Assembly (NCBI GenBank): GCA_964035545.1
Contig: OZ037768.1
Span: 14,083,675-14,147,674, forward strand
Direction of reading: 5' to 3'
Source: Bugula neritina
Lineage: Eukaryota > Animalia > Bryozoa
Length of the DNA: 64,000 nt
Below the pieces are notes generated by a model, which ran no database searches, was not told where the DNA came from, and was given only the letters and a program-made list of their open reading frames with translations. A program made the position numbers and the translations under genes. Below, piece after piece: positions 15,579-48,278 of the stretch; within the stretch, counting starts at the first letter, position 1; each line of letters opens with the position of its first letter.

Positions 15579-16426
15579 GTATGTATGTATGTTGGGGTCA
15601 ACTACATATGAATGTAATTAATTACAATTACAATAGACGATGTAAATTTGGTACAATTACTACCTTGTATCAACTCTAGAATACTCGCCACTATAACTTA
15701 TATAAACTTCTGCAAGTTTAAATGCAAAATGCATACCTTTAGAAAATAGTTGTGCAACTTTTATTACATGAATTATTTTATTTCATATCTTAAATTTATG
15801 AATCATGATTTCATTTTTCAAAATGTTTAAATTAAGTGCTCAAAAAATACAATTAAAAAATGTATTCCTGCATAAATACCCTGGTGCAGTTTGACCACAA
15901 CCCCAGCTGTTTTGGCAAAACACATAAAATTGTTTTTTTATTGACATAGTGGTGAATGAGCTGGTTGTTTTTGGCAGTTGGGTAGACTTAAAGTTAAACA
16001 GCTTTACACAATTCTGATTGGCAGGATTTTACACGATCAGTTGATGTTTGTACCAGATTGGCCTAATAATGCATTTACATTTGAAAATGTAGAGTTTTAT
16101 ATAAGCTAGAATAGTGATGGTGTGGTGGCTCGTGGAGCTACCAACAGCACAATATGCAAGGTTGCGTATTGACCCGGAACTGTGTACTCAGCCAATTAGC
16201 GAAGCTGCTAGTGAGTAGCAGTAGTTAGCTTCGCGCTACTAGCCAGTTGTGAATAGTGTAATAGATTAAATAGACGTGTAGTTTTCTGAATGTTTGTACC
16301 GTTTTTATTATGTATCTTAGACTCAAAATATACTCTTATTAACTCGACTTATCCGGTGAAGTTTCTCTAGCAAGTAAATAGACTCTCTGGATTACACATC
16401 AACCCTAATTCTAAAAAACATAACAG

Positions 16427-16444
16427 TGGTGGCAGCGGTGGGAT
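16427..16444 (+). promoter_or_regulatory. Primer-binding site complementary to the tRNA-Leu 3' end
   Basis: TGGTGGCAGCGGTGGGAT, 1 nt after the LTR. It complements the ...ATCCCACCGCTGCCA-CCA end of eukaryotic tRNA-Leu. Equivalent sites at 37535-37552 (E2) and 46110-46129 (E3). Confidence 0.85.
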
Positions 16445-16458
16445 AGTGTACATCAAAG

Positions 16459-17229
16459 ATGGAGACTGAAAATGCTAGAAATCAACCACCCCCAGTAGAA
16501 GGTGAGCGTAGAAATGATGTCAATCCTATGAATCATGTGGGAGAAGAAGCTTATCGATATTGCTTGAAAGCCCCCACCTTTACTGGGTCAGAAGATGTCG
16601 AACAGTTTATACAGGAGTTTAGAGAAGTAATGGATATTGCCCAATGGCCGCATAGAGTGGCCCTTATCCAATTGCGGAGAGCGTTGACGGAGCAAGCCAA
16701 GCCGTACGGAGTAGGAACGAACGTAGACGGGATATTGGCTGCGTTGCGGGCCCGTTTTGGCATCTCCGCAATAGACGCCAGGACCAAGTTACAGAGATTG
16801 TGCCGCGCCCCGCGGACCTCGCTGCAGGAACATGCCGCGACAGTGAAGAAGCTGGCACAAATCGCATATGGCGATCTACCAGCACAACATCAAGAGCGTT
16901 ACACCTATGACGCTTTTGTCCAGTCACTAAACGACCTGGGCCTACACCATCAACTACGAGCTAAAGGGATAACCAGGATAGAGGATGCCCTGAAGGCTGG
17001 AGAAGCTTGCCTGTTGGCTACCCAAATGCATCGAGCGCAAAGGAACCCACCAGCAGTTGGAGTCAATGCTGCCAGAGCTACTGCGGGCCCCGAAGCCCCC
17101 CCTCTGGAAGCCGAAGTAGACCGTATGGTAGAGATGTTGGGACAGCTGGTAACAATTCTGGCCAGCGCTGGCTGGCCCCGGTCAGGCCCTGCAGTTGCCC
17201 CCAGCACCTGTGAGGCCGGGCTGGAGTAG
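16459..17229 (+). CDS. gag: E1 Gag (capsid-like)
   Basis: LKAPTFTGSEDVEQFIQEF...ALRARFG, homologous to E3 Gag. No CCHC knuckle visible; the 3' end is probably frameshifted. Confidence 0.85.
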   Translation: METENARNQPPPVEGERRNDVNPMNHVGEEAYRYCLKAPTFTGSEDVEQFIQEFREVMDIAQWPHRVALIQLRRALTEQAKPYGVGTNVDGILAALRARFGISAIDARTKLQRLCRAPRTSLQEHAATVKKLAQIAYGDLPAQHQERYTYDAFVQSLNDLGLHHQLRAKGITRIEDALKAGEACLLATQMHRAQRNPPAVGVNAARATAGPEAPPLEAEVDRMVEMLGQLVTILASAGWPRSGPAVAPSTCEAGLE

Positions 17230-17617
17230 TGCTGGTCAAGACCATGGACAGCAAGGACGACCCCAACACCAGGGGGCGTTAAACTGTCACGGCCCGCGGA
17301 CGCCATTCCTCCCCGCGGACCGAAACTGAAGGAGCATGGTGGGACACGCCGCCGCCTGTCCGTACGGACACGACGGGACACTCCCCCCAAGTGGCAGGTA
17401 CCACGCAGGACTAGCAGGCCCGCACAGCGGCCGAGTACCTTCTCCCTGCCACTCACTAACCGGTTCCACCGGTTACCTCGGGAAGAGGAGCCCGCCACTG
17501 AATTAGAGCCAGAAGGCCCAGTGGAGAGCTCCGAACCCCGCCGGCACCAACCACGCCGCCGGAAACCCCGTAAATCACGGGTAAAACCCCCGCCGTCCTA
17601 CCCATCCAGGACAACAC

Positions 17618-20600
17618 ATGCGGGAGGGGGTGAAAGTACAACCACACGGAGAGAGCTATTTCCTACCCGGAAAGGTGGCGGGTAACGCCGTCACCTTCCT
17701 GCTAGACTCCGGTTGTACTACCAACCTCTTCAGTCGTAGAGTCTTTGAGGCACTGCCTCGCCGGGACAGGGATAGAGTACGATCGTATACGGGAGAACAT
17801 GGCACCTTAGCAGACGGGTCGTGTATTCCCTTCCACGGTATTATCGAGCTCCCTGGGCGTGTCCGAGACCAGGCTGTACAAGAGACCTTTGTCATAAGTC
17901 AACTGGAAGAAGATGCTATCCTCGGAATGCCTTTCTTGAAGCAGCACCAATGCCGCATAGACTTTAGCAAGTCGGCAGTGCTGATGGGCGGGCGAGAACT
18001 CGCCTGTGTGGATAAGTTTGGGCGTCCCCTGGTGGGCGGTGTTCAGGTAGTTCGAAACTGCACCGTACCCGGGTGCTCTCGAGCCACTATCCTCTGCCGA
18101 GTGAACAGCAACCGGATAGCAAGACTCGGGGTCGTTGAAGGCGCGCACGAAAGGATCCAACTCGCCGGTAGTTTAAACCAACTAACTGAACAAGGGGAGA
18201 TCTTAGTGCAGTGTGTCAACCCCTTTACCGAGCCCGTCAAGCTTCCAGCTGGGTCAATGCTGGGCCGGTTCCACTCCGTCCAGGAAGAGGACGTGGGCCC
18301 GTCGCTGGGTGATGCGACGGAGACACCCCCTCGGCACCCTACTCAAAAGAGAGGGGTGGTCCCAACACATATCCGGGAGTTATATGAGACAGCCTGTGGT
18401 GGCTGCGCGAGCAACAAGGAACGCCAAGCTATGGCGAAGTTGCTACGCGACTACGGTGATGTGTTCAGCAGCGGAGATCATGACGTGGGGCTGACTGGAG
18501 TTGTCAGACACGAAATACCGCTGACTGCGGGGACGACCCCTGTCCGGCAACCCACACGAAGGCTGGGGCCGGAGAAAGAGAAGGAGGTTAGCCGACAAGT
18601 ACGGGATCTTCTGGACCGGGGACTGATAGAGCCCGCCCATAGTGCGTGGAGCTCGCCGGTCGTACTGGTCCAGAAGAAAGACGGCAGTTGGCGGTTCTGT
18701 GTGGATTACCGCAAACTCAATAGCGTAACCATACAGGACGCCTACCCTCTACCTCGTATTGACGAGTCATTGGATGCCCTAGCCGGCAGCAAGTACTTCA
18801 GTACGTTAGACTTGCTGAGTGGCTACTGGCAAGTTCCTCTGAGTCCCGACGCCCAGGAGAAAGCGGCGTTTATCACACGGGACGGTTTGTGGAAGTGGAA
18901 GGTGTTGCCTTTCGGGTTAACCTCCGCCCCAGCCACCTTCCAGAGGCTGATGGAGCAAGTCCTTAGCGGGCTCCATTGGAAGACACTGCTGATCTACCTC
19001 GATGATGTCATCGTGATCTCTCCAGACTTCGAGACGCATGTCAGTCGTCTGCGGGAGGTCTTCGAGAGACTCCGAGGTGCCGGTCTTAAACTCAAACCTT
19101 CCAAGTGCACTCTATTGCAGCCGGAGGTCAAGTACCTGGGGCACGTTGTCGGTCGAAACGGCGTGGCAACGGATCCCGAAAAGGTACGGGCGATAGAAGA
19201 CTGGGTCACCCCCCAAGACTTGACCAGACTACGGGCTTTCTTGGGGCTGGTAGGGTATTACAGGCAATACATACCAGACTTCGCGGGCATAGCACAGCCG
19301 TTAAACCGGCTCACCGCAAAGGGAGTGACGTGGCAGTGTACCCCAGTCGAACAAGGAGCGTTCGACCGCCTCAAGGGTTGCCTACTAACGGCACCCATCT
19401 TGGCCTACCCAGACCCCACTCTGGAGTACATCCTCGACACTGACGCCAGTGACCAAAATTTTGGCGCTGTGCTGTCTCATGTGCAGGAAGGCCGAGAAGT
19501 AGTAGTAGCCTACTACAGCAAGTCTCTCTCACCCACTGAACGAAATTACTGCACAACCCGCAAGGAGCTGTTGGCAGTAATCAAGTCCGTGAAGCACTTC
19601 AGACCATACTTATACAGCAGGAAGTTCCGGCTGCGTACGGCTCATGCCTCACTGATCTGGTTGTGTAAGAGAGCAGAGCCCTCCAGTCAGGTCGCCCGGT
19701 GGCTCGAAATCCTAGCTGAGTTCTCATACCGGATCGAACATTGACCGGGCAAGAGACACAGCAATGCGCATGGGCTGAGCCGCCGACCTGATGGGGGTTG
19801 CAAACAGTGTCTCAACATCGAGAGGAGGGACGGAGGTCCCCCGCGATGTGAATTAGAGACACTGGCTCACCACAGAGCACAGTTTGACTGAGACCAGGGT
19901 CAACTCAGGCAGAAAGTTGACGAGTCCCCGGAGGTTGTACAAAACCTCCGCGCCAACCCTGTACTGGCCGATAATGTCCGGGAGCTGAAGAAGCTCCAAG
20001 GAGAGCTGCCTGGAGTAGTAGCGGACATATATCGGGCCAAAAAGGAAGGGCGACGACCCAGCGAGGAACGCATACGGCAGGGATGCGCCGAGTTCCGGCT
20101 ATACTGCCAGCGTTGGGACTCGCTGCGGATCGGGCAGGATGGTCTACTGACCATTTCTCTAGCTGCCAGCGGCAGACATCCGGAGAGGAAGAGGGTGGTC
20201 TGTCCCACTGCCATCCGCCGTGAGTTGATTTGGGACACTCACAAACAGGCTCACGCAGGAGTCAAGAGAGTGATCTCCAAACTACGACTCCGGTGGTATT
20301 GGCCACAGATGGAGCGGGACGTCCGACTCAGAGTCAAGCAGTGCGAAATCTGCCAGGCCAGTAAGCATGGCCGTCTCCCTGGTGAAGCGGGACGGCGGAG
20401 GCTATATGCTGGCAGGCCCTGGCAAGTGGTAGCCGTTGACCTGGTCGGACCCATGCCCCTGACCCCCAGAGGAAATAGTTGGATCTTAGTATTGACCGAC
20501 CACTTTACTAGGTGGGCAGACGCTCTGGCTATCCCAGATGCGTCAGCCCCAACAGTGGCCAGGGCGCTAGACCAACATGTATTCTGTTACTTCGGGCTTC

Positions 20601-21904
20601 CCGAACAGATACACTCTGATCAAGGCGTGCAGTTTCAGTCCCAACTGATGAGCGACCTTTGCCGCCTCTGGGGAGTAAATCAGAGCAGGACGACCCCCTA
20701 TCACCCCCAAGGTAACGGGGTGGTGGAGCGCAATAACCGGATGCTAGGTGATGCGCTCCGGAGTCTCCTCCTTGGACGCGGTCAAGAGGAATGGGACACG
20801 GTGTTGCCGCAAGTCATGCGTGCATACCGTAGCACCCCACACACCAGTACTGGTAAGACCCCAAACCTCTTGATGCTCGGGAGAGAGACTCGTGTCCCTG
20901 ACCATTTTACCTACCACGTTCCAGAGCTAGACAACTCGATCAACGAGTATGCCAGTGAACTAGTGGAACGGATGAAGGTCGCACACGATATACTGCGCGA
21001 ACAGCAGTGGAAGGTGCGACACGAAGATTCCGAGGAACCACCCCTATACCAGACGGGAGATAAGGTGTGGATGGTCAATTACCGTAGGCGTCGCGGACAA
21101 GCAGCTAAGCTACAGCCTAAGTTCGTGGGACCCTACGTGATCGTCGAGGCGATGCCCAACCATACGTACAAGATTGAGCGCTCAGGACAGGTGTCTATTC
21201 AGAATGAGTCTCGCTTGAAACCGTATTGGGCTAGCCCTGATGCAGTGGGAGAAGCCCCCCGTTGTTGGAGCCTAGAAGGCAGACAACAACGTGTGGGCGA
21301 CGGCGGCAGGGACCTGAATATGAAGTGGTCATACCGCGGGAAGAAGACTTGGTGAGAGATGAGCGACCGCTTTTGACAACAGAAGCGCGTCCGCCACCGC
21401 CAAATCTAATTCCATCACTTCCAGAAACCGAGCCGGTTCCGGAAGTGCAAAACCCCGCGGAGGGAGGGGCTCCATCCGGAGAACAAGAAGAAGTGACCAC
21501 CAACGGTGAAGTAGAGACGCCACCAGAGGCCCCTGCTAATAAACCGGCGAGCGTGTCACCCCCCCCTAGAACGGGGACAGCGTACGAGGAAACCCCCACC
21601 ATATTTAAAAGACTTCGTATGTGACTGCATTAGAAGCGGCACGCATGAAAGTCTAGGGGAAAGCCGTACGGAGAAATGTTGGAGTTGTGATCCCCACGAA
21701 AATATCAACTTTTGCGAGGGCGGAATAGTGGGAGGAATTAATGAGCATAAAGCAAATAGTTCCGACCTCGTGCCACAGAAACGATGCCCAGCCTTTTCTT
21801 ACGCTGACATCGCCAAGGGCAGATGTACTTCACAATTAGCTCCAACCTTACCAAGAACGTTGAGTATGGACACTAATACCGAGTTCACAGGTAAGCCAGT
21901 ATAA
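17618..21904 (+). pseudogene. pol: E1 pol (protease LLDSGC, RT YLDD, RNase H DTDAS, integrase HHCC + DDE + GPY), disrupted
   Basis: ORFs 17618-19744 and 20195-21355 are joined across in-frame stops at 19742 and 19888. Frameshifts near 21259 and 21565 lead to ...ERGQRTRKPPPYLKDF. Confidence 0.92.
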
Positions 21905-21921
21905 GTCTTGTATTCCTATTC

Positions 21922-23004
21922 ATGGAAACAGGCTCGATGCCAGTAAATTCTGAGCTAATTCATCAGATTGAATCAGAATTACTGGGGACCACGTTTCACG
22001 TGAATGACGACGAGGACACGGTAATGGCCGACGGTCTGTTAGACCTGGAGCTAGACACTGTTCTTGGTCAGTCCACACATGATTCACTGGTCTCTCGAGT
22101 GCATTCTAAAAGTTGTGACTCTCAGACTAGTAACAGTCGACAGTCACTAGAATTATGTTGTAAAGATCCACCGCGATCTGACAATAATTCTACTCTTGTA
22201 GACACACTCGCGCCCGTCTCTCCGGGCATGCCTTCCCTAGAGATGGCGTGGGACCCAGAGCCGGCCCCACTAACTTCCACAACTAGACAACTGCCACCCC
22301 AGCTAGAAGCGACCTCTAACTGGACTACCCCTGCCACAGAGACGGAAATTAAGAAATATAGAGGGGATGACAATAACTGCGAGTGCCAGCTATGTCAACA
22401 GCGGTTTACAACCCTTCGTAGATTAAGAGTCCACTTGCCGCAGCATTTTATCACAACGTTCTGCCCCTGCGGGGAATATAGTTATAACCGAGACTATCTG
22501 CTGCGTCATCAACGCACCATGCATTGCTTTCAGGGACACGTATACGACGTGGATAAATCTTCTTACTCAGCATTCCTCGAAGTTATCAGACCTCTCATCA
22601 CCGACCCAGCTCGGCTATCTCGCCTGGAGCAAGGCTTTCCCTCCCCTCGACCCTCACCTCTGAACCCAATGACAAACCTTCGAAATCATCTAGCTCCCCA
22701 CCTCTCCATTCCGTACGTCGACCACAGACGCTTCCCCGTGTCGTACTACAGAGGGTAGACACGGAGACGTACACACTTCCTCCCCCGCTCCCATCTTCAG
22801 AACGGAAAAGACACCGACAGCAGCAGACCTTCTCCCGCTCATCTCCTCTGGCCCGCAACTTACGAGAAGTAGAGACTAGGGCAAACGAACTGGAACAAGA
22901 GGTATATAGACTAGCCCCCCCCCCTCCGCATTCATGCCGCATCCAGTGAGCTCCGGTCACTACAGGAGTCCATCAAACGGATGAAACGAGCAGCCCAGGA
23001 TTAA
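21922..23004 (+). CDS. E1 post-integrase accessory region: acidic segment, two C2H2-type zinc fingers, PxVxL, coiled coil (frameshifted near the 3' end)
   Basis: CQLCQQRFTTLRRLRVHLPQH and CPCGEYSYNRDYLLRHQRTMH, then LPRVVLQRV and LREVETRANELEQEVYRL...LRSLQESIKRMK in shifted frames. Confidence 0.8.
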
Positions 23005-23638
23005 TATGATTTCCCGCTCCAGCCTCCCATCTCACTTCTCTACTACCTCTCTGTGGCATTCCCTAGCGTTACTGTGGCATGTACCCTACATGTAGATAAG
23101 ACTCACCAATTACTTAGTGTCATTTCATTGTGCATATTTTATATATATATATATATATCTCACCAGATTGGTTCCTGTATATACATTTTATATCTTTTCT
23201 CTCGTTAGTCCACTGATGTACCTGGTTACTTGTGAATTATATTTTTTTTTATATCAGAAAGAGGGCTTTCTGCTGGTGGGGGCGGTGTGGTGGCTCGTGG
23301 AGCTACCAACAGCACAATACGCAAGGTCGCGTATTGACCCGGAACAATGTACTCAGCCAATTAGCGAAGCTGCTAGTGAGTAGCAGTAGTTAGCTTCGCG
23401 CTACTAGCCAGTTGTGAATAGTGTAATAGATTAAATAGACATGTAGCGTTCTGAATGTTTTGTATCGTTTTTATTATGTATCTTGGACTCAAAATATACT
23501 CTTATTAACTCGACTTATCTCGGTGAAGTTTCTCTAGCAGGTAAATAGACTCTCTGGATTACACATCAACCCTAATTCTGGAAAACATAACACTTGGAGG
23601 TAGTGAAATTTAACAAATCACAAACTAATACTCTCTAT

Positions 23639-31213: not shown

Positions 31214-31854
<641 letters not shown>

Positions 31855-33650
31855 CAGGGATGTAGTGGTACCCATACGGTCCCATACGCCGTATGGCCTA
31901 GAAGAAAATAGACTGTTCTAGGCCATACGCCCGTATAGGCATAATTATTTTTGAAAGATGATTAGTGCACAGGATAGTTTTGGCATCCTCACTGAGAATA
32001 TCATAAATTTCGCTCACAATCTAATTTAAGTTCTTGTTATGTTAATGCTATGTGGGTGGCATGCGTGTTGCCTACTTGTGATTGTTTAGCCTGAGATTAC
32101 ACTATGAATAATATGCAGCTATCAACATTTCATCTTCTTATCTCTACTTGTTCACTGAAGCGCGAAGTGCTGCGCATTGGTGATTGCTAAGGAAAAATCT
32201 TTCATTTTCGGTGTATAAATCACTAACTTGTAGAAAATCTATGAAGGCTATTGAAAAGATCAAAAAATTTGCTATGCATAAATTTCTCAGGTTTCCGACA
32301 GTGTTTGTTCTATTCGAATACCATGCTTTCCTGCTGAGATATTTGGCAGGGATTGAAAAATAAACTTTTCAGGTAAAATTGGCTAAAAATGGGTAGATTT
32401 TTGTCTATAACTTTGCAAAAAATTATTGAAAACTCAAAAAACAGGTGCTCTGAGGAACAAGAAGATCCATGTAAAACATGGTTTTTAAATTTTAATTCTA
32501 GCACAATTAAGTGAAGTTTTATTTGGCGGGACTGAATTTTTATAATATACCAATAATGTGGCCTCAGCAAGGCAGTGACAGCTAAAAGGTTGCCCTTATC
32601 TATCTTGTGTGGACTTGCATTTTGTGAATAAGCAATGGAATTTGGAAAAAACCAACATGAAATCCAGAAATAAAATCAAAATGTCTTTAAGAAACAGTAC
32701 CAGGTGTGTAGGAGAGGGTAATGAAAATTTATCACTGAGGTCTACAGCTACTATATCCACATTTTGGTCAAGAACCTAGCGCTATTGCATGTTAATTATC
32801 AATGCAATAAGGTTTTGCAAACTGTACACCACCATAAGTAACCTTTTATATTTGATTGTACCAACGTCTGGCTTTACATTTAATCATCTTCTAGGTTAAC
32901 ACATATTAAACCTGTCAAATTTGTTCTTTTGGGGTATATTTCCTTGATGTATCCAGTGGAAGCTCAGGGGTTTTATTTCAAAACCAAGTTAACATACTCT
33001 TCTTGGGTGTGCTTTATTGTGTGTAAGGAGGTGTGGCGGTATCACCTTATGGGTTAGACTAGTACTCTAATAAACTCCAAATAGGTTTTCAACCAATTTC
33101 TGCTTGCCAGTGAGTTATCAATTCAAATTGCTCTTTATAAATAACCAACACACATTTTCTAATTAGCAATCTTCCTCTGTTCTGATCTATTATTTTTTTC
33201 TGTGCATGGCAGTGTATTAGTTATTTAAAGTAATCAGGTTGCATTTGGAGAGCACTTGTTACCTGCCTCTATCCTTCCATCTTTTTGAGATATTCAGCAA
33301 TTTTTCTGCACAGGTTGGACTTAGTGTCAGAACAAACCTAACTGCAGCTGAGTAAGACTACATTACATTACATTACAGTCAACAGGTATGAGACAAGACT
33401 GAATATTTATATAGTTTGCAGCAATGCCCAGTCGTCATGTAGCTGGTATGGTATGAAAATAATAGTGAGGTGCACATTTCAACACATATTTTTTTCAGAA
33501 GAATTATAATTCACAATGGCTTTAAATTGCATAAATTTGCATCAGAAGCGCTCTGAGGGCTTCGGCGGCCGGGGCACTGCCCCGGGCCCCGCCGGGGGCC
33601 TGGGCGGCTCCCTGGACCCCCGGCCTGAGAGTATGTTCGCCACTACATCC

Positions 33651-33994: not shown

Positions 33995-34801
33995 GCATAT
34001 ATATGCATATAATATTGTAGTAGTTTTGTGCACTACTAAATTGGGTGTTATTGTGTGCTGGTAATTACTGCATATCCACTGTGAGGTTATATGAAGAACC
34101 AAACTACGAGTAGTTGATCATTTAACAAGAGAATTGTATTGTTAATCAATTACGCGCGATCAAAAATCAGTATAAGTATAAAAGAGAAAAGAGTACATAG
34201 CTGAAACAGTTACATAAAGTTAACCTAGTTATCTACCACTACTGTCCAAGACTGCTGTGAGCGCCGGAAGGTATTGCTTATATATACAGAGTGGATCCTG
34301 ATTGGATGACACAAAATTCCAGCGGTGTTGTCCGTAGTTACTAATAGGGCACCGCCTAAACATGCGGCAAAGGTTTGCAGAGTTGTCGCCCTTGACGTTA
34401 GTTTCACCATAGTCTATAGAGTCATGTTTAGCAGGGGACACTGGGGGGTATACTTCCCCTAACCATTACACCACCCCTCTAGCAGGAAGCCCACTTTCTG
34501 ATATAATCCCAAAAAAAGGTGGAGAAGTATCAGCAACCAGGAAAACCATAAAAAACAGTATTATAAAAATAGTATAAGAACATAATCATAAAAATATATT
34601 TAAAAAAATGTACTGAAAAAATTTGATTGAGATAATTGTGGCACAGCTGCAACCCACATTGTAGTCAACAACGTAGAGTCTGAGACGAGCACTAAGCAAC
34701 TGCTACCGAAAAGTCAGAAAAAAACAAGATGAAATGTTTATATACATATATAATACTAGAAGAGATGTAGCATACCCAGGTGCCAGGTGGGCGACAGGGC
34801 C

Positions 34802-35974
34802 TTACGAGGGCTTGGTTTTGTTCTTCAATCTATGTAAGGACTCCTTCAGGAGGTGCAGCTCATTGGTGGCTGCCAAAACCTGGGGAGTTAGATGATGTAG
34901 CTGGTCCTCCAAGGTGGATAATCTGTTTTCCACCTCGCGGATGGAAGTAGCAGAGGCAAGGGTGGACGTCGAAACAAGGGACGGGAAGTCTCTGCTCTTT
35001 CTCTTCTGGGATGTAGACGACATGGAATCTTGAGAATGGGACCGCTGGGCACGGTCCTGGTGTCTAGCCGGGGTAGCATTGGTGTCAAGCCGCTGCAGCA
35101 TCACTTTTGGAGACTGACGAGGGGGAGGAATCTGGCTGACTTCTTCTTCTTTCTTCTTGTATCGAGGGGGCCTGGGCACCAGTCCTTCTGTGATAGAACG
35201 AGGGGGGGGGGTTGGAAACTTGCGAGATAATCGATTTAGCTTGCTGGGATCTTGCACTAGGGGCCAGATGACGTCAAAGAATGGGGCAAACGTCTGTTTA
35301 TCCACGTCGAAGACATGGCCCTGGACAGATCTCATCGTCCACTGGTGCCGCAGTATGTAGTCATGGTGATAAGTAAACTCACCGCAGCGGCAAATAGTGG
35401 TCACAAAGTGCTGGGGCATGTGCACCTTCAACCTCCGTGGAGTTGTGAATATCTGCTGACACAAGTGACATGTTTAATTATCCAGGTCCCCTCTCACATC
35501 TAGAATCTTCTGCTCGGTAACTGCGGCTGCCCAGCATAGCCGTCGCTGAAGGATGGCTGGCAGCTTCTTTGGAGAAGAGGTGGAGTTGGTAACAGGGGCA
35601 GGAGAGGGTTGCCGCTCTGGTACTGGATCATCATCCCAGACGATGTCTGGCGACGACAGGACACCTGACGAAGCAGGTCGAGTGATATCTAGAAGAGCAG
35701 AATTAGTGTTAGATCGACATGGATCTTTACAATGTAATTCATGTGAAACTTGACTTTAAGTAGCTCGAGAGTCACAAACTCCTCTATACGACACTCGCGA
35801 GACAGATGGCAGCGATGTAGACTGACTGAAAGTCATGGATTCTAGCTCAAGATCTAACAGATCGTCGGCCATTACTATGCTTTCGTCGCCATTCACCGTT
35901 GTCAAAGTTGCCAGCAAGTCTAACTCAAATAAATTAATTGAGTCAGAGTCAGCTGACAATAAACTCATTTCCAT
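34802..35974 (-). CDS. E2 post-integrase accessory region (acidic segment, zinc fingers, PKVML, coiled coil), partly disrupted
   Basis: ORF 35756-35974 (MADDLLDLELE) and ORF 34802-35464 (CQQIFTTPRRLKVHMPQH, CRCGEFTYHHDYILRHQ, SPKVMLQRL, IREVENRLSTLEDQLHHL). Confidence 0.78.
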
Positions 35975-38900
35975 TTTAATAAGAATACTAGATCTAGGTG
36001 GCTTACCTCTAAACTCAGTATTTGGAAGTATACTTGAACGTTATATTCAGCCCGCTGCTCCGCCCTCTCAAAAGTCCCTTTCGCTTTTGGATGCACAACT
36101 CCCACGCTGTTCGCGGCAACTCTCGGTAGAGCCCAGAGCTTGACTTGTTGATCTACCGTTTTGCAGGCAGTCGCAGACGAAATCTTGCAAGTAAGGCGGA
36201 GGTTGCCGCGACCGCTGACTTCTCTCCAGAAACAGCGGGGACTCCTCGGGTAGACTCGCAGGATCCACGGGGGAGCTGCCTGAACAGGGGAGCCATCACT
36301 AGCTTCTGCCTCGCCGTTTAGGGTAGGACCGTTCTCTGAAAGAGGGTCCTGACTTCCTGGCCCGGATTAGGCGCAGAGAGTAGCAAGACTAGAGTGGCTA
36401 CTGGAGGCGACGGTCTTTCCTCCGGAGAAGGAGGTGGTCGCTCGTCTGTCACCACATCCCTGTCCCGCGGCATGACCACTTTATACCCCGGTTTGTGCCG
36501 TATCTGCTCTCGCATCACTGTCTGCCTCCTGGGCTCAAGCAGCAAGAGTGCTGCATCTACCGCATCGAGGTGAGGCAAAATACGGTTTCAAGCGAACCTC
36601 ATTCTGGATAGACACCTGCCCTGAGCTTTGAATCTTGTACGTATGATTGGGCAGAGCCTCAACTACCAGGTTGGGCTCCACGAACTTGGGCTGTAACTTA
36701 GCCGCTTGTCCACGGCACCTGCGATAGTTGGCCATCCAGACCCAGTCCCCCCTGCTAGACGAGAGGCTCATCAGATTCCTCGGTCTGTATCTGCCATTGA
36801 CTCTCTTGAAACATTTTGTGTGTGGCTCTCATGCGCTCTATCAACTCCTCCACATACTCATGTACAGAGTTATCATGGTCAGGAACGCGGCTTCTGTGTA
36901 ACTGAGTAGCCAACAGATAAGCCTCACCCTCCCGCAGTGCGTCTTTGACCATCGCCACTCCCCTCGCCAGAAAGTGCTGATGGAGCCCTAGGTCATTCAC
37001 CAACTGCACAAAAGCGTTGAAGGTGTACCGCTCACGATTAACGGGTGACAGGTCACTATGCGCAATTTGCGCAAACCGTTTAACTGTGGCGGCATGTTTT
37101 TGTAGGAAGATGTGCGGGTCGCGCCGCAACCCTTGTAAGCGGACTCGGGCATCTACAGCCGAGATGCCAAATTGAGCCGTCAGGTCCTAACCCATTGGGT
37201 TTGGCCTTATCTGTCAACGCTAGCTGCAGTTGCAACAGGGCCACACGGGGTAGCCACTGGGTGACGGCTACCACGTCACTAAACTCCTGGATGAATTGTT
37301 CCACATCCTCATTGCCAGTAAAGATGAGAGCTTTCAGACAGTACCTGTAGTCAGGTAGTTCTCTGTGAGCCTCCTTGCCCGGCGGCACTGGGTTTTTAAT
37401 TTGGTTTGCGAACTCACCTTCATCTTGTCACGGAGGTTGCGCAGGTTCTTCTGCCATGGTGGGTACTCCATCGTCGTGCTCTGCCATTATAATCCTTATT
37501 TATTGTCCAGATAGCAGTTGCATTGCACACAATTCTCTCACTGCTGCCACCACTGTTGTAGTTTTGTGCATTACTAAGTTGGGTGTTATTGTGTGCTGAT
37601 AATTACTGCATATCCACTGTGAGGTTATGTGAAGAACCGAACTAGTTGATCAGTTAACAAGAGAACTGCGTTGTTAATCAATTACGCACTATCAAAAATC
37701 AGGTATAAGTATAAGAGAGAAAAGAGTACAATAGCTAAAACAGTTACATAAAGTTAACCTAGTTATCTACTACTACTGTCCATGACTGCTGTGGGCGCTG
37801 AACGGCATTGCTTATATATACAGAGTGGATCCTGATTGGATGACACAAGATTCCGGCGGTGTCATCCATAGTTACTGAGAGGGCACCGCATAGACATGTG
37901 GCAAGAGCTTGCGGAATTGTCGCCCTTGACGTTAGTTTCATTATAATCTATAGAGTCATGTTTAGCAGAGGACACGGGGGTATACTGTTGTAGTTTTATG
38001 AATTACAACTACTTGCGGGTATTATTGCGTGATTGACTACTGCATCATTAGCGAGGTTATAACAGAACCGAGCGTGTGGATTGGAACGATATAATTATAT
38101 TAGTTACAAAAGATACAGAACAAAGAAGTTACATCAGTCAATAAAAGACAAGAGCACAATAATACAAAGGTTACCTATCTAGTTATTAGCGTGGTTCTTA
38201 ACTGCTGTGGGCGACGGCTGGCGCTGTTTATAAGTGTCAGGTCACGTGTTAGATGTCAATACTAAGCCTAGGGCCACACGGTGCGTATTTTCGCATGCGA
38301 AAATTGAAATCACAAGTAGCAAAGGTGTCTACTGTACGCGTTGAGAAAACATTTGCACTTGTCGCTCAGCATTCTCCACGCAAGTGCGAATCGTCTCTGT
38401 TGTCGTCACCTAATTGGCTTGTAGTTATTCAGCGAGCCCAATTTCTTTAGTTTAGTGCTACATTCCAGTAAATTGCGTTTTATTGAAAGCGAGTGCAATT
38501 TAAAAATGAAAGTTTTATTTATCACGCATCACTGACGCTACAGTGTGTGATAGTTTTGTGGGTTGTGAATGAAACTAGTGCTTTACATGCTTGTTATGAG
38601 AAACAAGGCGAGAAATAAGGTAGAAGGTAGATAGCTTTATTGTAGTATAGTCCGAGTGAATCAATGGTCTTTGTCCAGCGAGCTCCAGTAGTAGACTGAA
38701 CTATACTGGAACTCGCTGGCTTTTATATACATGCAGGACAAAGACATTCCTTTGTTTGCCGAGATCGGAGGCCCGAAATACCGAATATCGGCACTTCGGG
38801 AATCCGAAATGCCGAATCCGGCATTTCGGTACTTCGGTATTCCGATATGCCGAGAATCGGCATATCGGTGTTTCGGAGGACCGAAGTACCGATCTCGGCA

Positions 38901-39272
38901 ACAAAGGACACACACACACAACATAAATTTACCACACACACCCCCCATCGGAAAGCATGCTTTCCGATAAAGAGGCGTACGCAACACAAACACACAACAG
39001 GGAATGACACGACAATAAAACACACAGTTGATAAGTAACACACACAAAAAAAACAATACGGTAACATGCAGCGACATTAATAATACAATGATAACAACAA
39101 AAAAAAACAGGGAAAATTGTGCACACACAAAAAAAACAGAGCATGAATAGGTACATACATTTCACGAAGAACTTACACACATATATAAAAAAAACAAAGA
39201 AATAAGATAGGAAAGAAAATACTATACAAATAGTCTCAGCGGCGGTCTCCAGATCGGCCCCGCTTCAGGCGC

Positions 39273-41261
39273 CTAACACGTCTCCAGCTCCTCCTCATAC
39301 CTGCGGAGCTGCCGGCGGAGATGTTGTACCTCCTCTGCTAACTGGGCCGACGTCTGGTGTCTGGAGCGGTCGGTGGCACCATGGGTAGGACGTCGCTGGC
39401 GGTGCGTCTGCTTCTCGCCCGCCGCCGAGGGTCGGGGGCCCAGGTCCGATGAATCGGTCCTGGCGCCTGGTCCGACCCGTGCCAGCATGACCCGAAGTGG
39501 CTGGGTGGCTGCCGGTTGGGGTGTCGCGGCGGGCTCCCCTTCTTCTTCCCGAACAGGCCTACACGCGGGGAATCCCAGGGCGAGAGCAGCCCGTTTATGG
39601 GGATCCGCCACGTGTGGCAGCACCAGGTCCCGAAACTCGGGAAAGGAGGCCTGGTTTACAGCAAACGTGTAGCCTGTGTGGCAGTGAGCTATGCGTTGAT
39701 GTCTCAACACATAGTCTCTCTGGTAGGAGAACTCCCCACACGGGCAAAACACGTTGATGTAGTGCTGTGGGGCGCGTACACGCAACCGCCGTGCAGAGGA
39801 GAACTTCCTCTTACACTCATGGCAGATGCGGTTGCCCGGCTCACCGCAAGCTTCACCAATCTTAAGATTGGTGGGTCCAGTCACCCAATACTGGCGGGCG
39901 ACCAGGGCCCGAGGCAGGGCCAGTATTGGGGAGTTGTCTTCTTCTGCTGGCAGATGGTCGCCGTGTAGGATGCCCTGCTCCTCCCCGGCCGTGAGCTGGA
40001 GCTCGACCGGTTTGGGGTCAGGGCCACTAACGATGGCGGAACACACCTCTGTGGAGGAGGTTGCGGCCTGCTGGCTGGTAGAAGCCGAAGCAAGGGCTGG
40101 TGGGAGAGGGGAGTCGGACCGACTGGCCTCCTCAACGTCCATACGCTCCTCTAGAATAGATAGTAGAGGCTGTGAAAAGCCGGTCTCACTATCGCCGAAA
40201 TTCGGCACAGGTGTGTATGGAGTTAAATTAAAAACCGAGGGCCGAGGTGTATCGCAGAAATTGACTGAGCCTACGTCGTGATTTAACAAAGTATCAATGG
40301 CAGAGTCATCTCCAAGATCCATCTCGGCCTCCGGTTCTAAGAAATCAGAACCAAGTAAGTCTAGTAAAGACCAGTCTACTTTAGTTTGACTAGACTCCGT
40401 AACTGGAGGATCTAATCTAGAAGAAATACCTGATTGCGTGTCTGGTAAAGTAATTCCCATAGCTGCTGATAGCGTTTGGAGAACAGTGTTAAAATCAAAA
40501 TGAGTATTAGAATCAGAATTTAGCTTGAGCTGTAACTGCCGTGCGAGCTGTGTGAAATCAGAATGAGAAATGGCCGAACCTCGTGCTTCAGAAGTTTTAC
40601 CTGCTGAAGCCCGAGTCGCGTGGCTCGTGGGAATTTCCCCCGGATTTCGAAAAGACAACTCGCGTGATCGAGTGTCTTCCGAAATTCGGTCGGCCATTTC
40701 TTCTTTTTGGTGGAATTCTCCGGGGTGATGGAGGGAATTTCCAACCAAGATGGGGTGATAGTCAGTGTGGGGGGGGTCGTCCTCAGGAGGGGGCCACTCC
40801 AGGTGCCCTACAGCATAGTCTGCCAGGTACCTGGGAGGTCTTCTTGGCCGCTGGCTCCTCTCGAGTGGAACAGGCACTGGTGGTGTTGGTGGCTCCTGGG
40901 CTGCCCTAGTAGGGGGGTCCCCGTCTTCACCCCGTACGGGGGTGGGGGTGTCCTCCCCCGAAAAGGGTTGTGATCCAAGGGCTTGCCGCTGTTCCTGTTC
41001 CCGCTCCGCTCTCTGCTGCCGCTCCAGCTGCTCTATCAAGTCGGCCTGCTCCTGGTCCGTCTCCCTGGGGACCATAATCTCCACCTCTCGGGGCTGGGTG
41101 GCCCGTCCTCGACGGTTGGGCTGACGGTGGGGCTCCAGGAGGGGTGGAGCCTGACCCACCGCGTCTGGGCTGGCATGGTAAGGTTTGAGGCGCTGCTCGC
41201 TCTGGACAGAGATCTGTCCAGAGCGCTCCACACGGTACGTGTGGTTGGGCAGCACCTCCAC
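39273..41261 (-). CDS. E3 integrase C-terminus fused in frame to a ~500-aa zinc-finger / coiled-coil accessory extension
   Basis: 662 open codons. They run from the GPY/F module (VEVLPNHTYRVERSG) through ERSQRPRRPPRYLADY, LLDLLGSDFLEPEAEMDLGDD, CHECKRKFSSARRLRVRAPQH, CPCGEFSYQRDYVLRHQRIAH and PLRVMLARV to LAEEVQHLRRQLRRYEEEL. Confidence 0.88.
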   Translation of the reverse strand: MEVLPNHTYRVERSGQISVQSEQRLKPYHASPDAVGQAPPLLEPHRQPNRRGRATQPREVEIMVPRETDQEQADLIEQLERQQRAEREQEQRQALGSQPFSGEDTPTPVRGEDGDPPTRAAQEPPTPPVPVPLERSQRPRRPPRYLADYAVGHLEWPPPEDDPPHTDYHPILVGNSLHHPGEFHQKEEMADRISEDTRSRELSFRNPGEIPTSHATRASAGKTSEARGSAISHSDFTQLARQLQLKLNSDSNTHFDFNTVLQTLSAAMGITLPDTQSGISSRLDPPVTESSQTKVDWSLLDLLGSDFLEPEAEMDLGDDSAIDTLLNHDVGSVNFCDTPRPSVFNLTPYTPVPNFGDSETGFSQPLLSILEERMDVEEASRSDSPLPPALASASTSQQAATSSTEVCSAIVSGPDPKPVELQLTAGEEQGILHGDHLPAEEDNSPILALPRALVARQYWVTGPTNLKIGEACGEPGNRICHECKRKFSSARRLRVRAPQHYINVFCPCGEFSYQRDYVLRHQRIAHCHTGYTFAVNQASFPEFRDLVLPHVADPHKRAALALGFPACRPVREEEGEPAATPQPAATQPLRVMLARVGPGARTDSSDLGPRPSAAGEKQTHRQRRPTHGATDRSRHQTSAQLAEEVQHLRRQLRRYEEELETC

Positions 41262-41326
41262 TACACAGTAGGGGCCGACGAACTTGGGCTGAAGCTTAGC
41301 CGACGTCGCCTACGGTAGCTCACCAT

Positions 41327-44300
41327 CTAGACCCAGTCTCCCACTTGGTACAACGGGGGCTCCTCCGAGTCCTCTGTGCGGGTCTGCCACTGCTGGGTAC
41401 GCAGCGCATCATGAGCTTTGCCCATGATGTCCATCAGACCCTCCACATACTCGTGTACCGGTGACTCGGGGGCAGGAACATGGTACGCCAGGTGTTCCGC
41501 GACCCGCGTCTCTCGGCCTAGCATCAGGAAGTTTGGGGGCTCCTGCGTGGCGGAGTGTGGTGTGCTGCGGTAAGCCCGCATGATCTGCGGCAGCACCACG
41601 TCCCATTCTTCCTGACCTCGACCAAGTAGCAGGCTCCGGAGCGCGTCACCCAACATCCTGTTGTTCCGCTTGACGACTCCGTTCCCTTGCGGGTGATATG
41701 GGGTGGTCCGACTCTGGTTCACCCCCCATATCCGGCAGAGGTCTCCCATGAGCTGGGACTGGAACTGGGCACCCTGGTCCGTATGTATCTGCTCGGGCAA
41801 ACCGAGGTAACAGAACACATGTTGGTCCAGGGTCCGGGCCACCGTGGGGGCGGTTGCGTCTGGAATAGCCAGAGCATCCGCCCACCGGGTAAAGTGGTCC
41901 GTGAGCACCAGTATCCAGGTGTTCTCTCTGGCGGATAACGGCATAGGCCCGACGAGGTCTACCGCCACTACTTGCCACGGTCGACCAGCGTACAGCCGGC
42001 TTCGACCAGTGGTTTCCGTGGGGCGGCCATGCTTGCTAGCTTGGCAGACCTCGCATTGCCGTACCCGCAGTCGTACGTCCCGAGTCATTCCGGGCCAATA
42101 CCAACGCAGCCGCAGACACCTGATGACCCGACTGACTCCAGCATGAGCCTGCTTATGGGTGTCCCAGATCAGTTCCCGCCGGAAGGCGCGTGGACAGACG
42201 ACGCGGTCCCTCTTCTGCTGGCGGTTGTCTGCTGCTAACGTTATCATCAGGAGGCCATCAGGACTGACCTTGAGGGCATCCCAGCGACGACAGAGGAGTT
42301 GGAACTCAACGTCTCCCTGCCGCTGCTGTTCCTCGCTAGGCCGTCGGCCCTCCTTCTTGGCCCGGAAGATGTCCGCTACCGCGCCGGGTAGCGTCTCCTG
42401 GAGTCGGCACAGCTCCTTGACGTTCTGGTGCAGAGTAGGGTTGGCGTGGAGCGCCTGGACACCGTCCTGGTGGGTTTCGGTCCGAAGATGGCCGTGCTCC
42501 CACTGGTAGGCAGTGCCCTCCACTAGTTCTGCTTCCACGTCAAGGCGAGCGGGTCCCCCGTCCCGCTGTTCAATGTGCAGGCATTGCTTACAGTCCTCTA
42601 CCGGCCGGCGGCTTATGCCGTCGGCGTTCCCATGCTTCTGGCCTGCACGGTGCTCTATCCAGTAAGAGAACTCGGCAAGAATCTCTAGCCAACGAGCCAC
42701 CTGGCTCGAGGGCTCTGCACGTTTACACAGCCATATCAGTGATGCATGGTCTGTTCGCAGACGGAACGATTTCCCATACAGATATGGCCGAAAGTGCTTG
42801 ACCGCCTTGACTACTGCTAGAAGTTCCTTCCTAGTGGTGCAGTAGTTCTTCTCGGCGGCCGCGAGAGTCTTGCTGTAGTAAGCCACGACCACCTCACTTC
42901 CACCCTGGACTTGAGACAAGACGGCTCCCACGCTGTGGTCGCTGGCGTCGGTGTCCAGGATGTACTCCTTGGCTGGATCAGGATACGCCAGGATTGGCGC
43001 TTCCATTAGCCGTTGCTTGAGGTGGTCGAATGCCTGCTGCTCCTCCTGTGTCCACTGCCACCGGACTCCCTTTGCGGTCAGCCGATTTAATGGCTGAGCC
43101 ACTCCTGCGAACCCAGGTATGTACTGCTGGTAGTGCCCTACTAGGCCCAGGAAAGCACGCAACTCAGGGAGGTCACGGGGGACAGTCCACTCCTTCACAG
43201 CTTGTACCTTCTCTGGATCAGTAGCGACTCCATCACGGCCAACCACATGGCCCAGGTACGTGACTTCTGGCTGCAGGAGTGCACACTTGGAGGGCTTCAG
43301 CTTCAGTCCAGCAGCCCGGAGGCGGTCAAAGACCTCCCGTAGACGACTGACATGAGTCGAGAAGTCCGGGGAGATGACAATGACATCGTCCAGATAGATG
43401 AGGAGAGTCTTACAGTGTAGCCCACTGAGGACTTGCTCCATGAGTCGTTGGAATGTTGCCGGAGCGGACGTTAGTCCGAATGGCAGTACTTTCCATTTCC
43501 AGAGCCCGTCGCGAGTAGTGAATGCTGCTTTGTCCTGGGCATCAGGACTGAGGGGCACTTGCCAGTACCCGCTAAGCAGATCCAAAGTACTGAAGTACTT
43601 GCTACCCGCGAGGGCATCTAGAGACTTATCTATCCGTGGGAGAGGGTAGGCGTCCTGGATGGTAACGCTGTTGAGTCTGCGGTAGTCCACACAGAATCTC
43701 CAGCTACCATCCTTCTTCTTGACCAGGACCACTGGGGAGCTCCACGCACCGTGGGCAGGCTCAATCAGATCCCGGTCCAGAAGATCCTGTACCTGTCGGC
43801 TCACCTCCTTCTCCTTCTCCGGGCCTAGACGTCGGGTAGGCTGCCTGATGGGAGTGGTGCCGGCTGCCAAGGGTATCTCGTGGGAGATGACCTTTGTCAG
43901 CCCCATGTCTCCATCGCCACGACTGAAGACATCACTGTACTCCGCGAGTAGTTGAGCCAGTACTTGGCGTTCAGTACTACTCGTACAGTTTCCGCATGCT
44001 CCGCCATACAGGTCAGCCAAGTGCTCCGGGACTGCTCCTCGTCTGGTGTGAGGGGGGTTCCCCTGGGTGTCGGTCACTGTCTCCAGTGCCGGACCCACAT
44101 CCGCTTCCTGGATGGAGTGGTACTTCCCCACCAGCGCTCCGGCCGATAATCGGACAGGTTCCGTGAAGGGGTTGATGCACTGCACGAGGAGCTCTTGCCG
44201 ACAATCTAGCCGATTCAGGCTGTTTGCTAGTCGGATGGCTCTGTGCGTTCCTTCAACCATCCCCAGGCCGGCGATCCCCTTGCAGTTGACTCTGCATCGG

Positions 44301-45183
44301 AGAGTCGCCTGGGACCTCCCCGGAACTGTGCAGTCCCGCACTACCTGGACTCCGCCTACCAAGGGTCTGCCAAACTTGTCAACACAGACAAGTTCCTTCC
44401 CAGCCATCACCACCACTGACTTCTGGAAATCCATGTGACACTGGTGTTTCTCCAGGAAGGGCATTCCCAAGATGGCGTCCTCCTTCAGCTGGCTGACTAT
44501 GAACGTCTCGTGAATTGCTTGATCACGGACGCGTTCAGGCAGTGAGATGACGCCGTAGAAAGGAATGCATGATGCGTCCGCCAACGTACCATGCGCACCT
44601 TCATACGGCTCGAGGCTCGCCTGTCTCGAGCCCCAAGAGTGTCAAAGAGACGCCGACTCAGCAGGTTGGTAGTGCACCCAGTATCCAGTAGGAATGTGGC
44701 AGCTTTACCCGAAATCTTCCCGGGCAGGAAGTAGCTGCTTCCGTACGGCTGGGTGCTCCTGGAGCGGTCAGTCTCTGGGGGAGACACAACTTGGGTCCGC
44801 ACAGCGGGCCTCCTCTTCGTCTTAGAGACAACGGGGGTTTTCTGAGGTCGGGAGGGTAGCTTGGGGTACTCTTGCGAGTAAGCTGAATCTTCCTCCACAA
44901 CCTCCTCGGGCAACCCCGCGAACCGGTTACGGAGTGGCCAGGCTGGAGGATCGGGTAGACCTTGCGGTCTCCGAGATCTCCGCGGTGCCTGCCATCCGGT
45001 TTCTTCTAGCTGCATCCGGGTATCGAGTGGCAGGGCAGGAGGATCGGGTAGGCCTTTCGGTCTCCGAGATCTCCGGTTTGCGTGCCACTCGATGTAGGTC
45101 GACTCTGGAGAGGTCTCTTCTGTTGTCTTCCGAGTCCTATCCCAGACCAGATTGGCGTGGGGCCCACGGGTGGCGGAATTCAC
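41327..45183 (-). CDS. pol: E3 pol (PR LLDTGC, RT YLDD, RNase H, integrase); one frameshift near 44600 and a TGG>TAG stop at 41327
   Basis: ORFs 44497-45183 and 41327-44584, closely similar to E1 pol. Confidence 0.93.
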
Positions 45184-45204
45184 CGTGAGCCTCGGGTGTT
45201 TAAA
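45161..45204 (-). promoter_or_regulatory. -1 programmed ribosomal frameshift signal (T TTA AAC plus stem-loop)
   Basis: The heptamer is in gag phase, followed by a 6-nt spacer and the 9-bp stem GGCTCACGG/CCGTGGGCC. The -1 frame continues into pol (HPRLTVNSATRG). Confidence 0.85.
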
Positions 45205-46079
45205 GGCTTCTGTCCCTTAGGGCAGTGCCTTCTCACATGTCCTGGCATCCCGCACTCCCAACAAGTGGGCGGAGGGGGGCGGACAGGGTCGTCCCGCGAG
45301 CGGGGAGCCCGCCTGTCTGTCTGGTTGCGCTGCAACTCCGCCACCGTAGCCTGCAGGCCTTTCATCATGCTCATCAGCATGTTGAGCTGCGTCTGCTCGG
45401 GCGACGGAGTAGCTGCTGCTGCCACTTGTGGGGTTGGGGGTACCTCTTCTGTATCTCCGGCCACCTGGCGAGCTGCGTAGTTCGCCCTCCGTGGTTCTTC
45501 TACTTGGAAGTAGGCCTTCCCCATCTCTAGTGCCTCGTCCAGGCTCTTGACCTTCGCGGCCAGCCAGTACCGCTGGAGGTCCGGGTGGTTCACGCTCCGG
45601 AAGAATGCGTTAAAAACGAGGCGCTTCCGATCTTCGCCAGTGGCGTGACCGAAAGCAGCCTGAGCCAGGCGCTCTACCTCGTTAGCGTGATCTTCCAGAG
45701 GTGTCCTTCGGTCTCTCCTCATCACTTGTAGCTGGTCTGACGCCTCTTCCGTGGTTAGGCCGAACCGGGCCCTGAGAGCCCGCAGGATGTGGGCTTCGTC
45801 GGGTCCCAGTGCGAAGTTCCTGGCCCGGCCTGTTAGACAGGCCCGGAGTTGGAGGACGCGCACCCGTACTGGCCATTCAGCGGTGGTGGCCACGTCCTCG
45901 AACTCCTTGATGAACTGTTCCACGTCTCCATCTCCTCCGAAAGTCGGGGGCTGGAGGCGATACCTGTCACCAGGTGATGCCTGTCCTTGCCCCCGCAATC
46001 CTTGGAGGGCTGTTACCAGCGCCTCGACAGTGAGGGCTGGTGTTGCTGCTGCCTCAGGGGCTGACTCCCCTGGGGCCAT
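45180..46079 (-). CDS. gag: E3 Gag with CCHC zinc knuckle
   Basis: LQPPTFGGDGDVEQFIKEF...ALRARFG...CWECGMPGHVRRHC. Confidence 0.92.
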   Translation of the reverse strand: MAPGESAPEAAATPALTVEALVTALQGLRGQGQASPGDRYRLQPPTFGGDGDVEQFIKEFEDVATTAEWPVRVRVLQLRACLTGRARNFALGPDEAHILRALRARFGLTTEEASDQLQVMRRDRRTPLEDHANEVERLAQAAFGHATGEDRKRLVFNAFFRSVNHPDLQRYWLAAKVKSLDEALEMGKAYFQVEEPRRANYAARQVAGDTEEVPPTPQVAAAATPSPEQTQLNMLMSMMKGLQATVAELQRNQTDRRAPRSRDDPVRPPPPTCWECGMPGHVRRHCPKGQKPLNTRGSR

Positions 46080-46784
46080 CCTATTCCTCTCAGCAACTAG
46101 CTATTCGTAGAATCCCACTGCTGCCACCAATGTGATAGTTTTGTGGGTTGTGAATGAAACTAGTGCTTTACATGCTTGTTATGAGAAACAAGGCGAGAAA
46201 TAAGGTAGAAGGTAGATAGCTTTATTGTAGTATAGTCCGAGTGAATCAATGGTCTTTGTCCAGCGAGCTCCAGTAGTAGACTGAACTATACTGGAACTCG
46301 CTGGCTTTTATATACATGCAGGACAAAGATATTCCTTTGTTTGCCGAGATCGGAGGCCCGAAATACCGAATATCGGCACTTCGGGAATCCGAAATGCCGA
46401 ATCCGGCATTTCGGTACTTCGGTATTCCGATATGCCGAGAATCGGCATATCGGTGTTTCGGAGGACCGAAGTACCGATCTCGGCAACAAAGGACACACAC
46501 ACACAACATAAATTTACCACAAGTGGACACCTTTGCTACTTGTGATTTCAATTTTCGCATGCGAAAATACGCACAGTGTGGCCCTAGGCTAATTGGCGGG
46601 TAGCTTCTAGTATTATGCATCCACGCACGTTGTCCGTCCCATATGAAGTGGGAAGACTAGGGTTGAAACGCTAGGGCTAACTAGTCTACAACTATAAACT
46701 ATATAATACATGTCAAGTAGAGAGGGCAGAAGAGTTCCCCCTTTCATGAGCCATTACAATACTTCCCCTAACAATTACACCATA

Positions 46785-47190
46785 CATGCTAATTATTTAC
46801 CAAAAATTTTAAAAATAGCATAAATTAAGTAGTATTACTATGCTTATTTGCATCCAATTTACTAGTCTTACATTTATGGCAATTGTAATGTATTTTGTGT
46901 AAAATGGTTAATTCAAGCATTTTCTATTCATATCCACATTGTAATCAAAGCGAAACTTAAACTTTATCGCTTTGTATTTACGTGCATGAATGAGTTTTAA
47001 AATTGTTTTTAATTTTATATGCATAAAAATGTGTTTAAAAACTTTAGCAATAAAAAAAAATGTACACATAAAATAAAAAATAAATAAAATAAGTGGCAAA
47101 ACTTTCCCTTTATAACTTTTATAAACTCGCGGCACAGACGTGGCATAATGATATTCCAAATTTTTTAAAGCCGCCACTCTAGATATCTAT
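46785..47190. repeat. Orphan arm of the foldback-element family
   Basis: Diverged copy of 48339-48776, inverted relative to 47206-47642. Confidence 0.75.
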
Positions 47191-47205
47191 TATCTCTGGG
47201 TCACG

Positions 47206-47639: not shown

Positions 47640-47721
<82 letters not shown>

Positions 47722-47738
47722 TATATTATATATATATA

Positions 47739-47792
<54 letters not shown>

Positions 47793-48230: not shown

Positions 48231-48278
<48 letters not shown>

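Follow-up and report, generated by a model that had tools for sequence, protein, structure and literature searches.

A conserved HP1-box-like motif behind the integrase of Gypsy elements in Bugula neritina, a candidate tether to heterochromatin

Only a few integration tethers are known, namely Ty5-Sir4, Ty1-AC40, MLV-BET and HIV-LEDGF. Ty5 is a yeast Copia element that works through another partner and has neither a zinc domain nor a coiled coil, and chromoviruses carry an integrase chromodomain, a folded domain that reads a histone mark. It is a long-standing question whether the accumulation of animal LTR elements in heterochromatin reflects targeting or an escape from selection. Here, three Gypsy elements (E1, E2 and E3) were analyzed, which carry a two-zinc-finger module with a short PxVxL-type motif in the linker behind it. 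Like the Ty5 targeting domain that binds Sir4, the motif is a short peptide of the integrase C-terminal region and a proposed tether to silent chromatin (PMC4176367). It also resembles the BET-binding tail of MLV in lying in a disordered (here predicted) integrase tail, and the E3 type matches P-L-basic-hydrophobic-.-hydrophobic-x-R; however, the second basic residue and the upstream Trp are missing, and BET targets active chromatin (PMC4176367). In Tal1, target choice is likewise set by the integrase C-terminal region (PMC12859917). In contrast to the chromoviruses, no chromodomain family was present among the Pfam matches.

KAP1/TRIM28 has the HP1 box P486-R-V-S-L-E-R492, whose residues at -2, -1, 0, +2 and +4 (the valine being 0) are identical to those of the E1 motif (PMC12126490). 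KAP1 differs in being a host co-repressor with extra upstream basic residues (R483 and K484) and in holding three basic residues between -4 and +4 (K484, R487 and R492), one above the motifs studied here, which are element-encoded and hydrophobic at +1 (PMC12126490). For fly HP1a, ligands lie in disorder, with an almost invariant basic residue at +4 and about 80% nonpolar residues at +5; the signature has 3-6 basic residues within -4 to +4, and the access code bars Ser or Thr at -4 and Glu at +1 (PMC12526061). The motifs studied here share a hydrophobic -2, Val or Ile at 0, an aliphatic +2, a basic +4, a nonpolar +5 and an island in predicted disorder; they differ in having at most two basic residues and, in the E1 type, mostly Thr at -4, in a comparison with a code that was built on flies (PMC12526061). 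By these analogies, the motif is integrase-tether-like by position and HP1-box-like by sequence. No element-encoded PxVxL motif or module of this type was found in the literature, of which coverage was partial, and a Repbase annotation is possible; the accessible parts of PMC13534243 and PMC7465937 hold nothing on element-encoded HP1 ligands.

The window, the whole 64,000-nucleotide stretch that was analyzed, is repeat-rich animal DNA, and the three elements cover 30% of it (Table 1). LTRs, target duplication, gag and PR-RT-RNase H-IN, the features of Ty3/Gypsy elements, were found in E1 and E3, with PR, RT, RNase H and integrase in Gypsy order and the target duplication clear for E3 only. E2 is a deleted copy with a junction of gag and integrase tail near 36889-36895, without PR, RT, RNase H or the integrase core. 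A contig bridging this junction was absent from the matches listed, and a non-autonomous family thus lacks support. The E2 module is in the frame of the PPxYL motif of the integrase end, but it has in-frame stops. In E3, a frame break separates the pol ORF from the integrase tail, and the 678-residue ORF runs in order through the SH3-like (GPY/F) domain, a long disordered low-complexity stretch, the zinc-finger domain, the motif, a basic patch and the coiled coil.

Table 1. Positions of the Gypsy elements, their modules and their motifs in the window
Feature	Positions	Strand	Remarks
E1 Gypsy element	16119..23592	+	LTRs 95.5% identical; several frame breaks
E1 module	21922..23001	+	Spread across more than one frame
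E1 pentamer PRVVL	22734..22748	+	
E1 motif PRVVLQRV	22734..22757	+	Frame break between motif and E1 zinc-finger ORF
E2 Gypsy copy, internally deleted	34016..37986	-	LTRs 88.7% identical
E2 module	34811..35974	-	Homologous to the 365-aa relative P0005
E2 pentamer PKVML	35096..35110	-	
E2 motif PKVMLQRL, positions -2 to +5	35087..35110	-	
E3 Gypsy element	38546..46521	-	391-bp LTRs 99.7% identical; 4-bp target duplication AGTG
E3 pol ORF	41327..44641	-	RT, RNase H, integrase zinc and core domains
E3 ORF, 678 aa, no stop	39273..41309	-	From integrase SH3-like (GPY/F) domain onward
E3 two-zinc-finger domain and flanking helices	39561..39890	-	pLDDT 96-98
E3 pentamer LRVML	39483..39497	-	
E3 motif LRVMLARV	39474..39497	-	
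E3 C-terminal helix, coiled-coil-like	39279..39350	-	

Several other features of the elements were observed. All three have the primer site TGGTGGCAGC.GTG.GA (16426-16443 in E1, about 37536-37553 in E2 and 46113-46130 in E3), which we take to be a tRNA-Leu match; no tRNA gene lies in the window. Both E3 LTRs (46131-46521 and 38546-38936) hold an array in which short TTCGG/CCGAA palindromes recur with a 38-bp period, a candidate binding array, and a piece related to it lies at 15184-15325. E3 lies about 560 bp from E2 and is nested in a small element (38266-46589) with terminal inverted repeats of about 69 bp and TAA duplications on both sides, presumably of the PIF/Harbinger (Tourist) MITE-like type. 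This nested landing is a single case in a repeat-rich window and no evidence for targeting.

The three motif sites and their flanks were read at the positions given in a preliminary description of this DNA. It had placed all three motifs in an accessory module. For E1, this did not hold in its simple form, as motif and zinc-finger ORF are in different frames, with a frame break between them. The bare pentamer is uninformative by itself, being too frequent in the window, where all six frames together hold 19 PxVxL and 113 LxVxL matches; in fly work it matches about half of a proteome (PMC12526061). The longer expression [PL][RK]VxLxR[LVI] has exactly three matches in the window, and these are the E1, E2 and E3 sites. 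The conserved unit exceeds the pentamer and is hydrophobic-x-V-x-L-x-R-hydrophobic. The codons of the V, L and R differ silently among E1, E2 and E3, which points to selection on the protein, as far as three copies can tell.

To describe the conservation of the motif, relatives of the module were collected. A module search returned 55 relatives within a size range of 50-391 residues, and a profile search gave 300 matches at E <= 0.001, of which the best 150 were used. From these, 43 sequences were picked by zinc-domain score and tail length with the motif ignored, and they were thinned to 31 non-redundant sequences with less than 75% identity, decayed copies included. An alignment anchored on the motif would be circular, and two of its rows were mis-anchored; conservation was therefore judged on the 31 sequences selected by zinc domain. 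Their column score was 0.35 in the motif, compared to 0.10 before it, 0.04 after it and 0.51 in the zinc domain, and elsewhere in the tail no 8-residue window clear of the motif scored above 0.21. The preliminary description, which had called the island conserved in an otherwise divergent linker, held that its HP1 reading would fall if the motif were conserved no better than its flanks in a larger alignment, and this test did not overturn it. Furthermore, [PL]x[VI]xLx[KR][ILV] was present in 29 of the 43 post-zinc-finger tails of at least 40 residues, compared to a mean of 0.25 and a maximum of 3 in 1000 shuffles. The motif is thus real and, on these alignments, under selection.

Each class position was well kept among the 31 sequences: hydrophobic at -2 in 28, V or I at 0 in 25, aliphatic at +2 in 29, K or R at +4 in 20 (and in all three window copies) and aliphatic at +5 in 28, with all five together in 15. 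Position +1 was hydrophobic in 27, which exceeds what an 'x' needs, and R or K stood at -1 in 18. The two subfamilies have linkers that differ in length by about 15 residues. In the E3 subfamily, T-Q-P at -5 to -3 is near-invariant (15, 14 and 15 of 15), and the HP1 reading gives no account of it. Many diverged copies cover the E3 motif in the aligned contigs, and their depth cannot rank the parts of the element.

Most relatives come from metagenome assemblies; of the module's homologues, a single one is named, a gene model from the bryozoan Watersipora subatra (P0058 and P0193; XP_067940964.1 and XP_067940963.1). In this model, the zinc domain occurs twice, and a hydrophobic strand-like island comes after each copy (LSVKL and VRVAL); it has no Pol domain in Pfam and is possibly a domesticated copy. 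P0080 also has two zinc-domain copies. DNA loci of the relatives were sought in metagenome contigs (two among 157 stretches, both judged chance matches), in genomes (none among 85 stretches) and in viral contigs (none among 65 stretches).

The module itself was modeled with AF2. Residues 1-120 form a compact domain with block pLDDT values of 91-98, and residues 121-192 have no helix or strand and are followed by a C-terminal helix. The block with the motif had a pLDDT of 69 and the following blocks 51-58. Thus, the motif linker between the two-zinc-finger domain and the coiled coil is predicted to be disordered. The first finger is C2H2-like, as in classical C2H2 proteins such as SALL, Kaiso and PRDM9; unlike theirs, the second finger starts with CxC and is embedded in the compact domain of about 110 residues. 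In a Foldseek search, nothing matched the module at E <= 0.001 and only weak C2H2 fingers turned up, and the best Pfam family matched 8 of 94 members, weakly. The Atlas query with E2 returned generic C2H2 clusters (best 0.91), and that with the motif region gave no usable match. The zinc module seems to be undescribed, with no good Pfam or PDB match.

Two copies of the relative P0003 folded together scored 0.35, compared to 0.06 for the best of three controls. With the score mark used for homodimers, 21 of 30 solved pairs passed, compared to none of 23 single chains; for eukaryotes, it was reached by 17 of 29 pairs, by 7 of 16 animal pairs and by none of 30 single chains. At least 20% of the contacts agreed between runs, with a pLDDT of at least 54, and the named contacts lay mostly within the zinc domain. 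The motif of P0003 (residues 220-227) was absent from them, which is no evidence against touching. These models support, without showing it, a zinc-domain dimer in P0003. Since the zinc domain is predicted to dimerize, two motif tags would be offered together.

The best explanation of these features, with a rough probability of one in three, is that the linker tag binds the HP1 chromoshadow dimer and tethers the integration complex to heterochromatin. The preliminary description had proposed that the motif may guide the elements through HP1. Its link to a pile-up in repeat islands, with three insertions to go by, and its other suggestion, that silencing is counteracted, gained no support. The main proposal stays tentative and has gained two points: the conserved basic +4 and hydrophobic +5 match marks of HP1 ligands, a fit beyond what was seen at first, and the module stands behind the integrase, like the Ty5 and MLV tethers. 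The odds that the motif peptide binds the chromoshadow dimer are about even. If HP1 is bound, a tether role would be the probable one; taken outright, the role of integration tether falls short of an even chance.

The fit with the fly code is partial. None of the 31 sequences reaches three basic residues in the span from -4 to +4: 15 have two, 10 have one and 6 have none. Because the signature of three to six is absent, the motif is not filed in the fly HAC class. The printed HAC expression (-7 to +6), from a code built on flies, was passed by E2, E3 and 11 of 15 E3-type rows and was failed by E1 and by 26 of 27 Pro-anchored rows, two of the 27 being mis-anchored. E1 fails it through the Thr at -4, which is found in 78% of the Pro-anchored rows. 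A chromoshadow gene was sought with two pattern scans, of which the first gave 14 unrelated loci and the second none.

According to the proposed mechanism, the Pol polyprotein would end in a dimeric zinc module, with an HP1-box peptide displayed on its flexible linker. The peptide would enter the chromoshadow groove as the middle strand, like that of KAP1, where P or L at -2, V at 0 and L at +2 would fill the groove. R at +4 would form a salt bridge as in fly ligands, and the hydrophobic +5 would contribute an extra contact. If the module is retained on the integrase after protease processing, HP1 binding would bias insertion to H3K9me chromatin, where the cost to the host would be small. If it is cut off or separately made, the HP1 contact may instead serve self-repression or act as a decoy.

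Another partner for the tag comes first among the alternatives and is unlikely: the island may be a different host-factor linear motif, such as an APC/C destruction box that sets when the protein decays, or a peptide read by some unspecified beta-augmenting domain. Short amphipathic strands are recognized by many domains, and the D-box expression is R-x-x-L-x-x-aliphatic. R or K stands at -1 in the 18 sequences mentioned above, and 12 of the 31 fit the D-box expression, E2 having K for R. However, a D-box leaves the conserved V at 0 and R at +4 without account, and in the distant families described below R is at -1 in only 4 of 14 instances.

Somewhat less probable is that the tag binds HP1 and the module is a released or separate regulator, a zinc-finger dimer for self-limiting repression or an HP1 decoy against silencing. 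The build of C2H2-like fingers, basic patch and coiled coil is that of a small transcription factor, and about 10 E1-type relatives, within the search range of 50-391 residues, were called as separate proteins that begin at one shared Met. The deleted E2 retains the module without the integrase core, and the bryozoan gene model has two domain copies and no Pol domain. Against this stand the stops in the E2 module and the LTRs, as no 8-mer is common to all three and neither E1 nor E2 has one in common with E3. Against it stands also the link to Pol itself.

The module is in frame with the integrase end in E3 and broken in E1 and E2. The zinc domain follows the integrase in the same ORF in 28 of 120 Pol relatives (the best 120 of 139), and five members of one cluster are 2373-residue proteins with both RT and module. 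A separate protein search at 918-2620 residues gave no matches, a miss since Pol fusions with the zinc domain exist. In an integrase tree of 121 rows (FastTree, midpoint root), the 28 proteins are scattered, which suggests that the module behind the integrase is an old feature that was often lost or broken. P0194, the closest Pol relative among the matches listed, has no zinc domain in its ORF, which, like the E1-type proteins called from one Met, speaks against the fusion being general. The module of the preliminary description is present, and in the majority of the informative cases it is a Pol extension and not a free accessory ORF. Among the Pol relatives, P0287, P0288 and P0309 carry additional domains, namely PF00692 together with PF22769, presumably of dUTPase type, in two of them and PF08719 in one.

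A further alternative, omitted from the preliminary description and rather improbable, is an MLV-type tail: the tag would be a ligand of the BET extraterminal domain, and insertion would go to active, acetylated chromatin, the opposite of what had been proposed. The gammaretroviral consensus ends in PL-basic-hydrophobic-basic-hydrophobic-x-R within a disordered integrase tail, with basic residues at -1 and +1 (PMC4176367). The motif also sits in an integrase C-terminal tail predicted to be disordered, and 6 of the 31 sequences match the consensus when the second basic place is left free. The full pattern and a basic +1 were each found in 0 of 31, and the upstream Trp was absent in the motif-anchored rows inspected. 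Because the BET pattern is absent, the motif is not filed in that class.

Distant families bear on both the BET and the HP1 readings. They comprised 79 proteins in 54 clusters, 42 of which had at least 100 residues of flank. The pattern hydrophobic-x-V/I-x-aliphatic-x-K/R-aliphatic was present in 8 of the 42, compared to 1.56 ± 1.20 expected from shuffles, although the p value of 0.001 overstates independence because the pattern was fixed after the tails had been inspected and some matches are kin. Altered patterns (shifted, reversed, or with an acidic +4) gave 1, 1 and 0, and a match of P0285, in its coiled coil, was excluded by trimming the last 55 residues. The other 34 clusters had no such motif. 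The residue at -2 was C, L, V, M or A. K or R was at +1 in 6 of 14 distant instances, as BET binding would have it, but basic residues at both -1 and +1 occurred in 1 of 14, and Glu was at +1 in 4 of 14, which agrees with neither the BET consensus nor the fly HP1 code. In Pol tails without the zinc domain, the pattern was present in 2 of 52, compared to 1.26 expected. One of the two, in the integrase tail of the Pol relative P0222, reads PVVVLERL, a canonical form of the HP1 box.

The motif lies upstream of the zinc domain in five of the eight distant clusters and downstream in three; this change of position argues for a portable ligand rather than a fold element. It also weighs against a structural role, in which the island would be a strand packing on the zinc domain or on another protein copy with no host partner. 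The three consecutive hydrophobic residues at 0, +1 and +2 agree with such a strand, as does the higher pLDDT of the motif block relative to the blocks that follow. However, the AF2 model has no strand, the two subfamilies differ in linker length as described, and we consider a structural role improbable. Finally, chance or a DNA-level constraint is very unlikely: the pentamer is frequent in the window, but the excess over shuffles in the 43 tails, the score above the flanks and the silent differences in the V, L and R codons all speak against it.

Returning to the HP1 tether, a broader version can be drawn by analogy, and we regard it as doubtful: a wide invertebrate Gypsy clade may carry a dimeric zinc module on its integrase together with a repeatedly evolved HP1-box mimic as an insertion address, an animal counterpart of Ty5-Sir4. 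If the tether reading is true, HP1, the reader of transposon silencing, would double as an insertion address, and with an HP1 box borne on the integrase, a single peptide and a single point mutation would suffice to test targeting. Motif-bearing and motif-less sister families provide a natural control.

Other repeats lie in the window. At 9742-10052, the opposite strand carries a lone LTR that belongs to the E1 family and is 84% alike. A large imperfect palindrome (about 80-83%) with an AT-rich core is at 46782-48776 and begins about 200 bp from the MITE. A dispersed repeat without a long ORF is present three times (12871-13960, 14692-15170 and 31848-32991). There are also two homogeneous minisatellites, one at 2269-2612 with 15.6 copies of a 22-bp unit (97%) and one at 55442-56085 with 38 copies of a 17-bp unit (98%).
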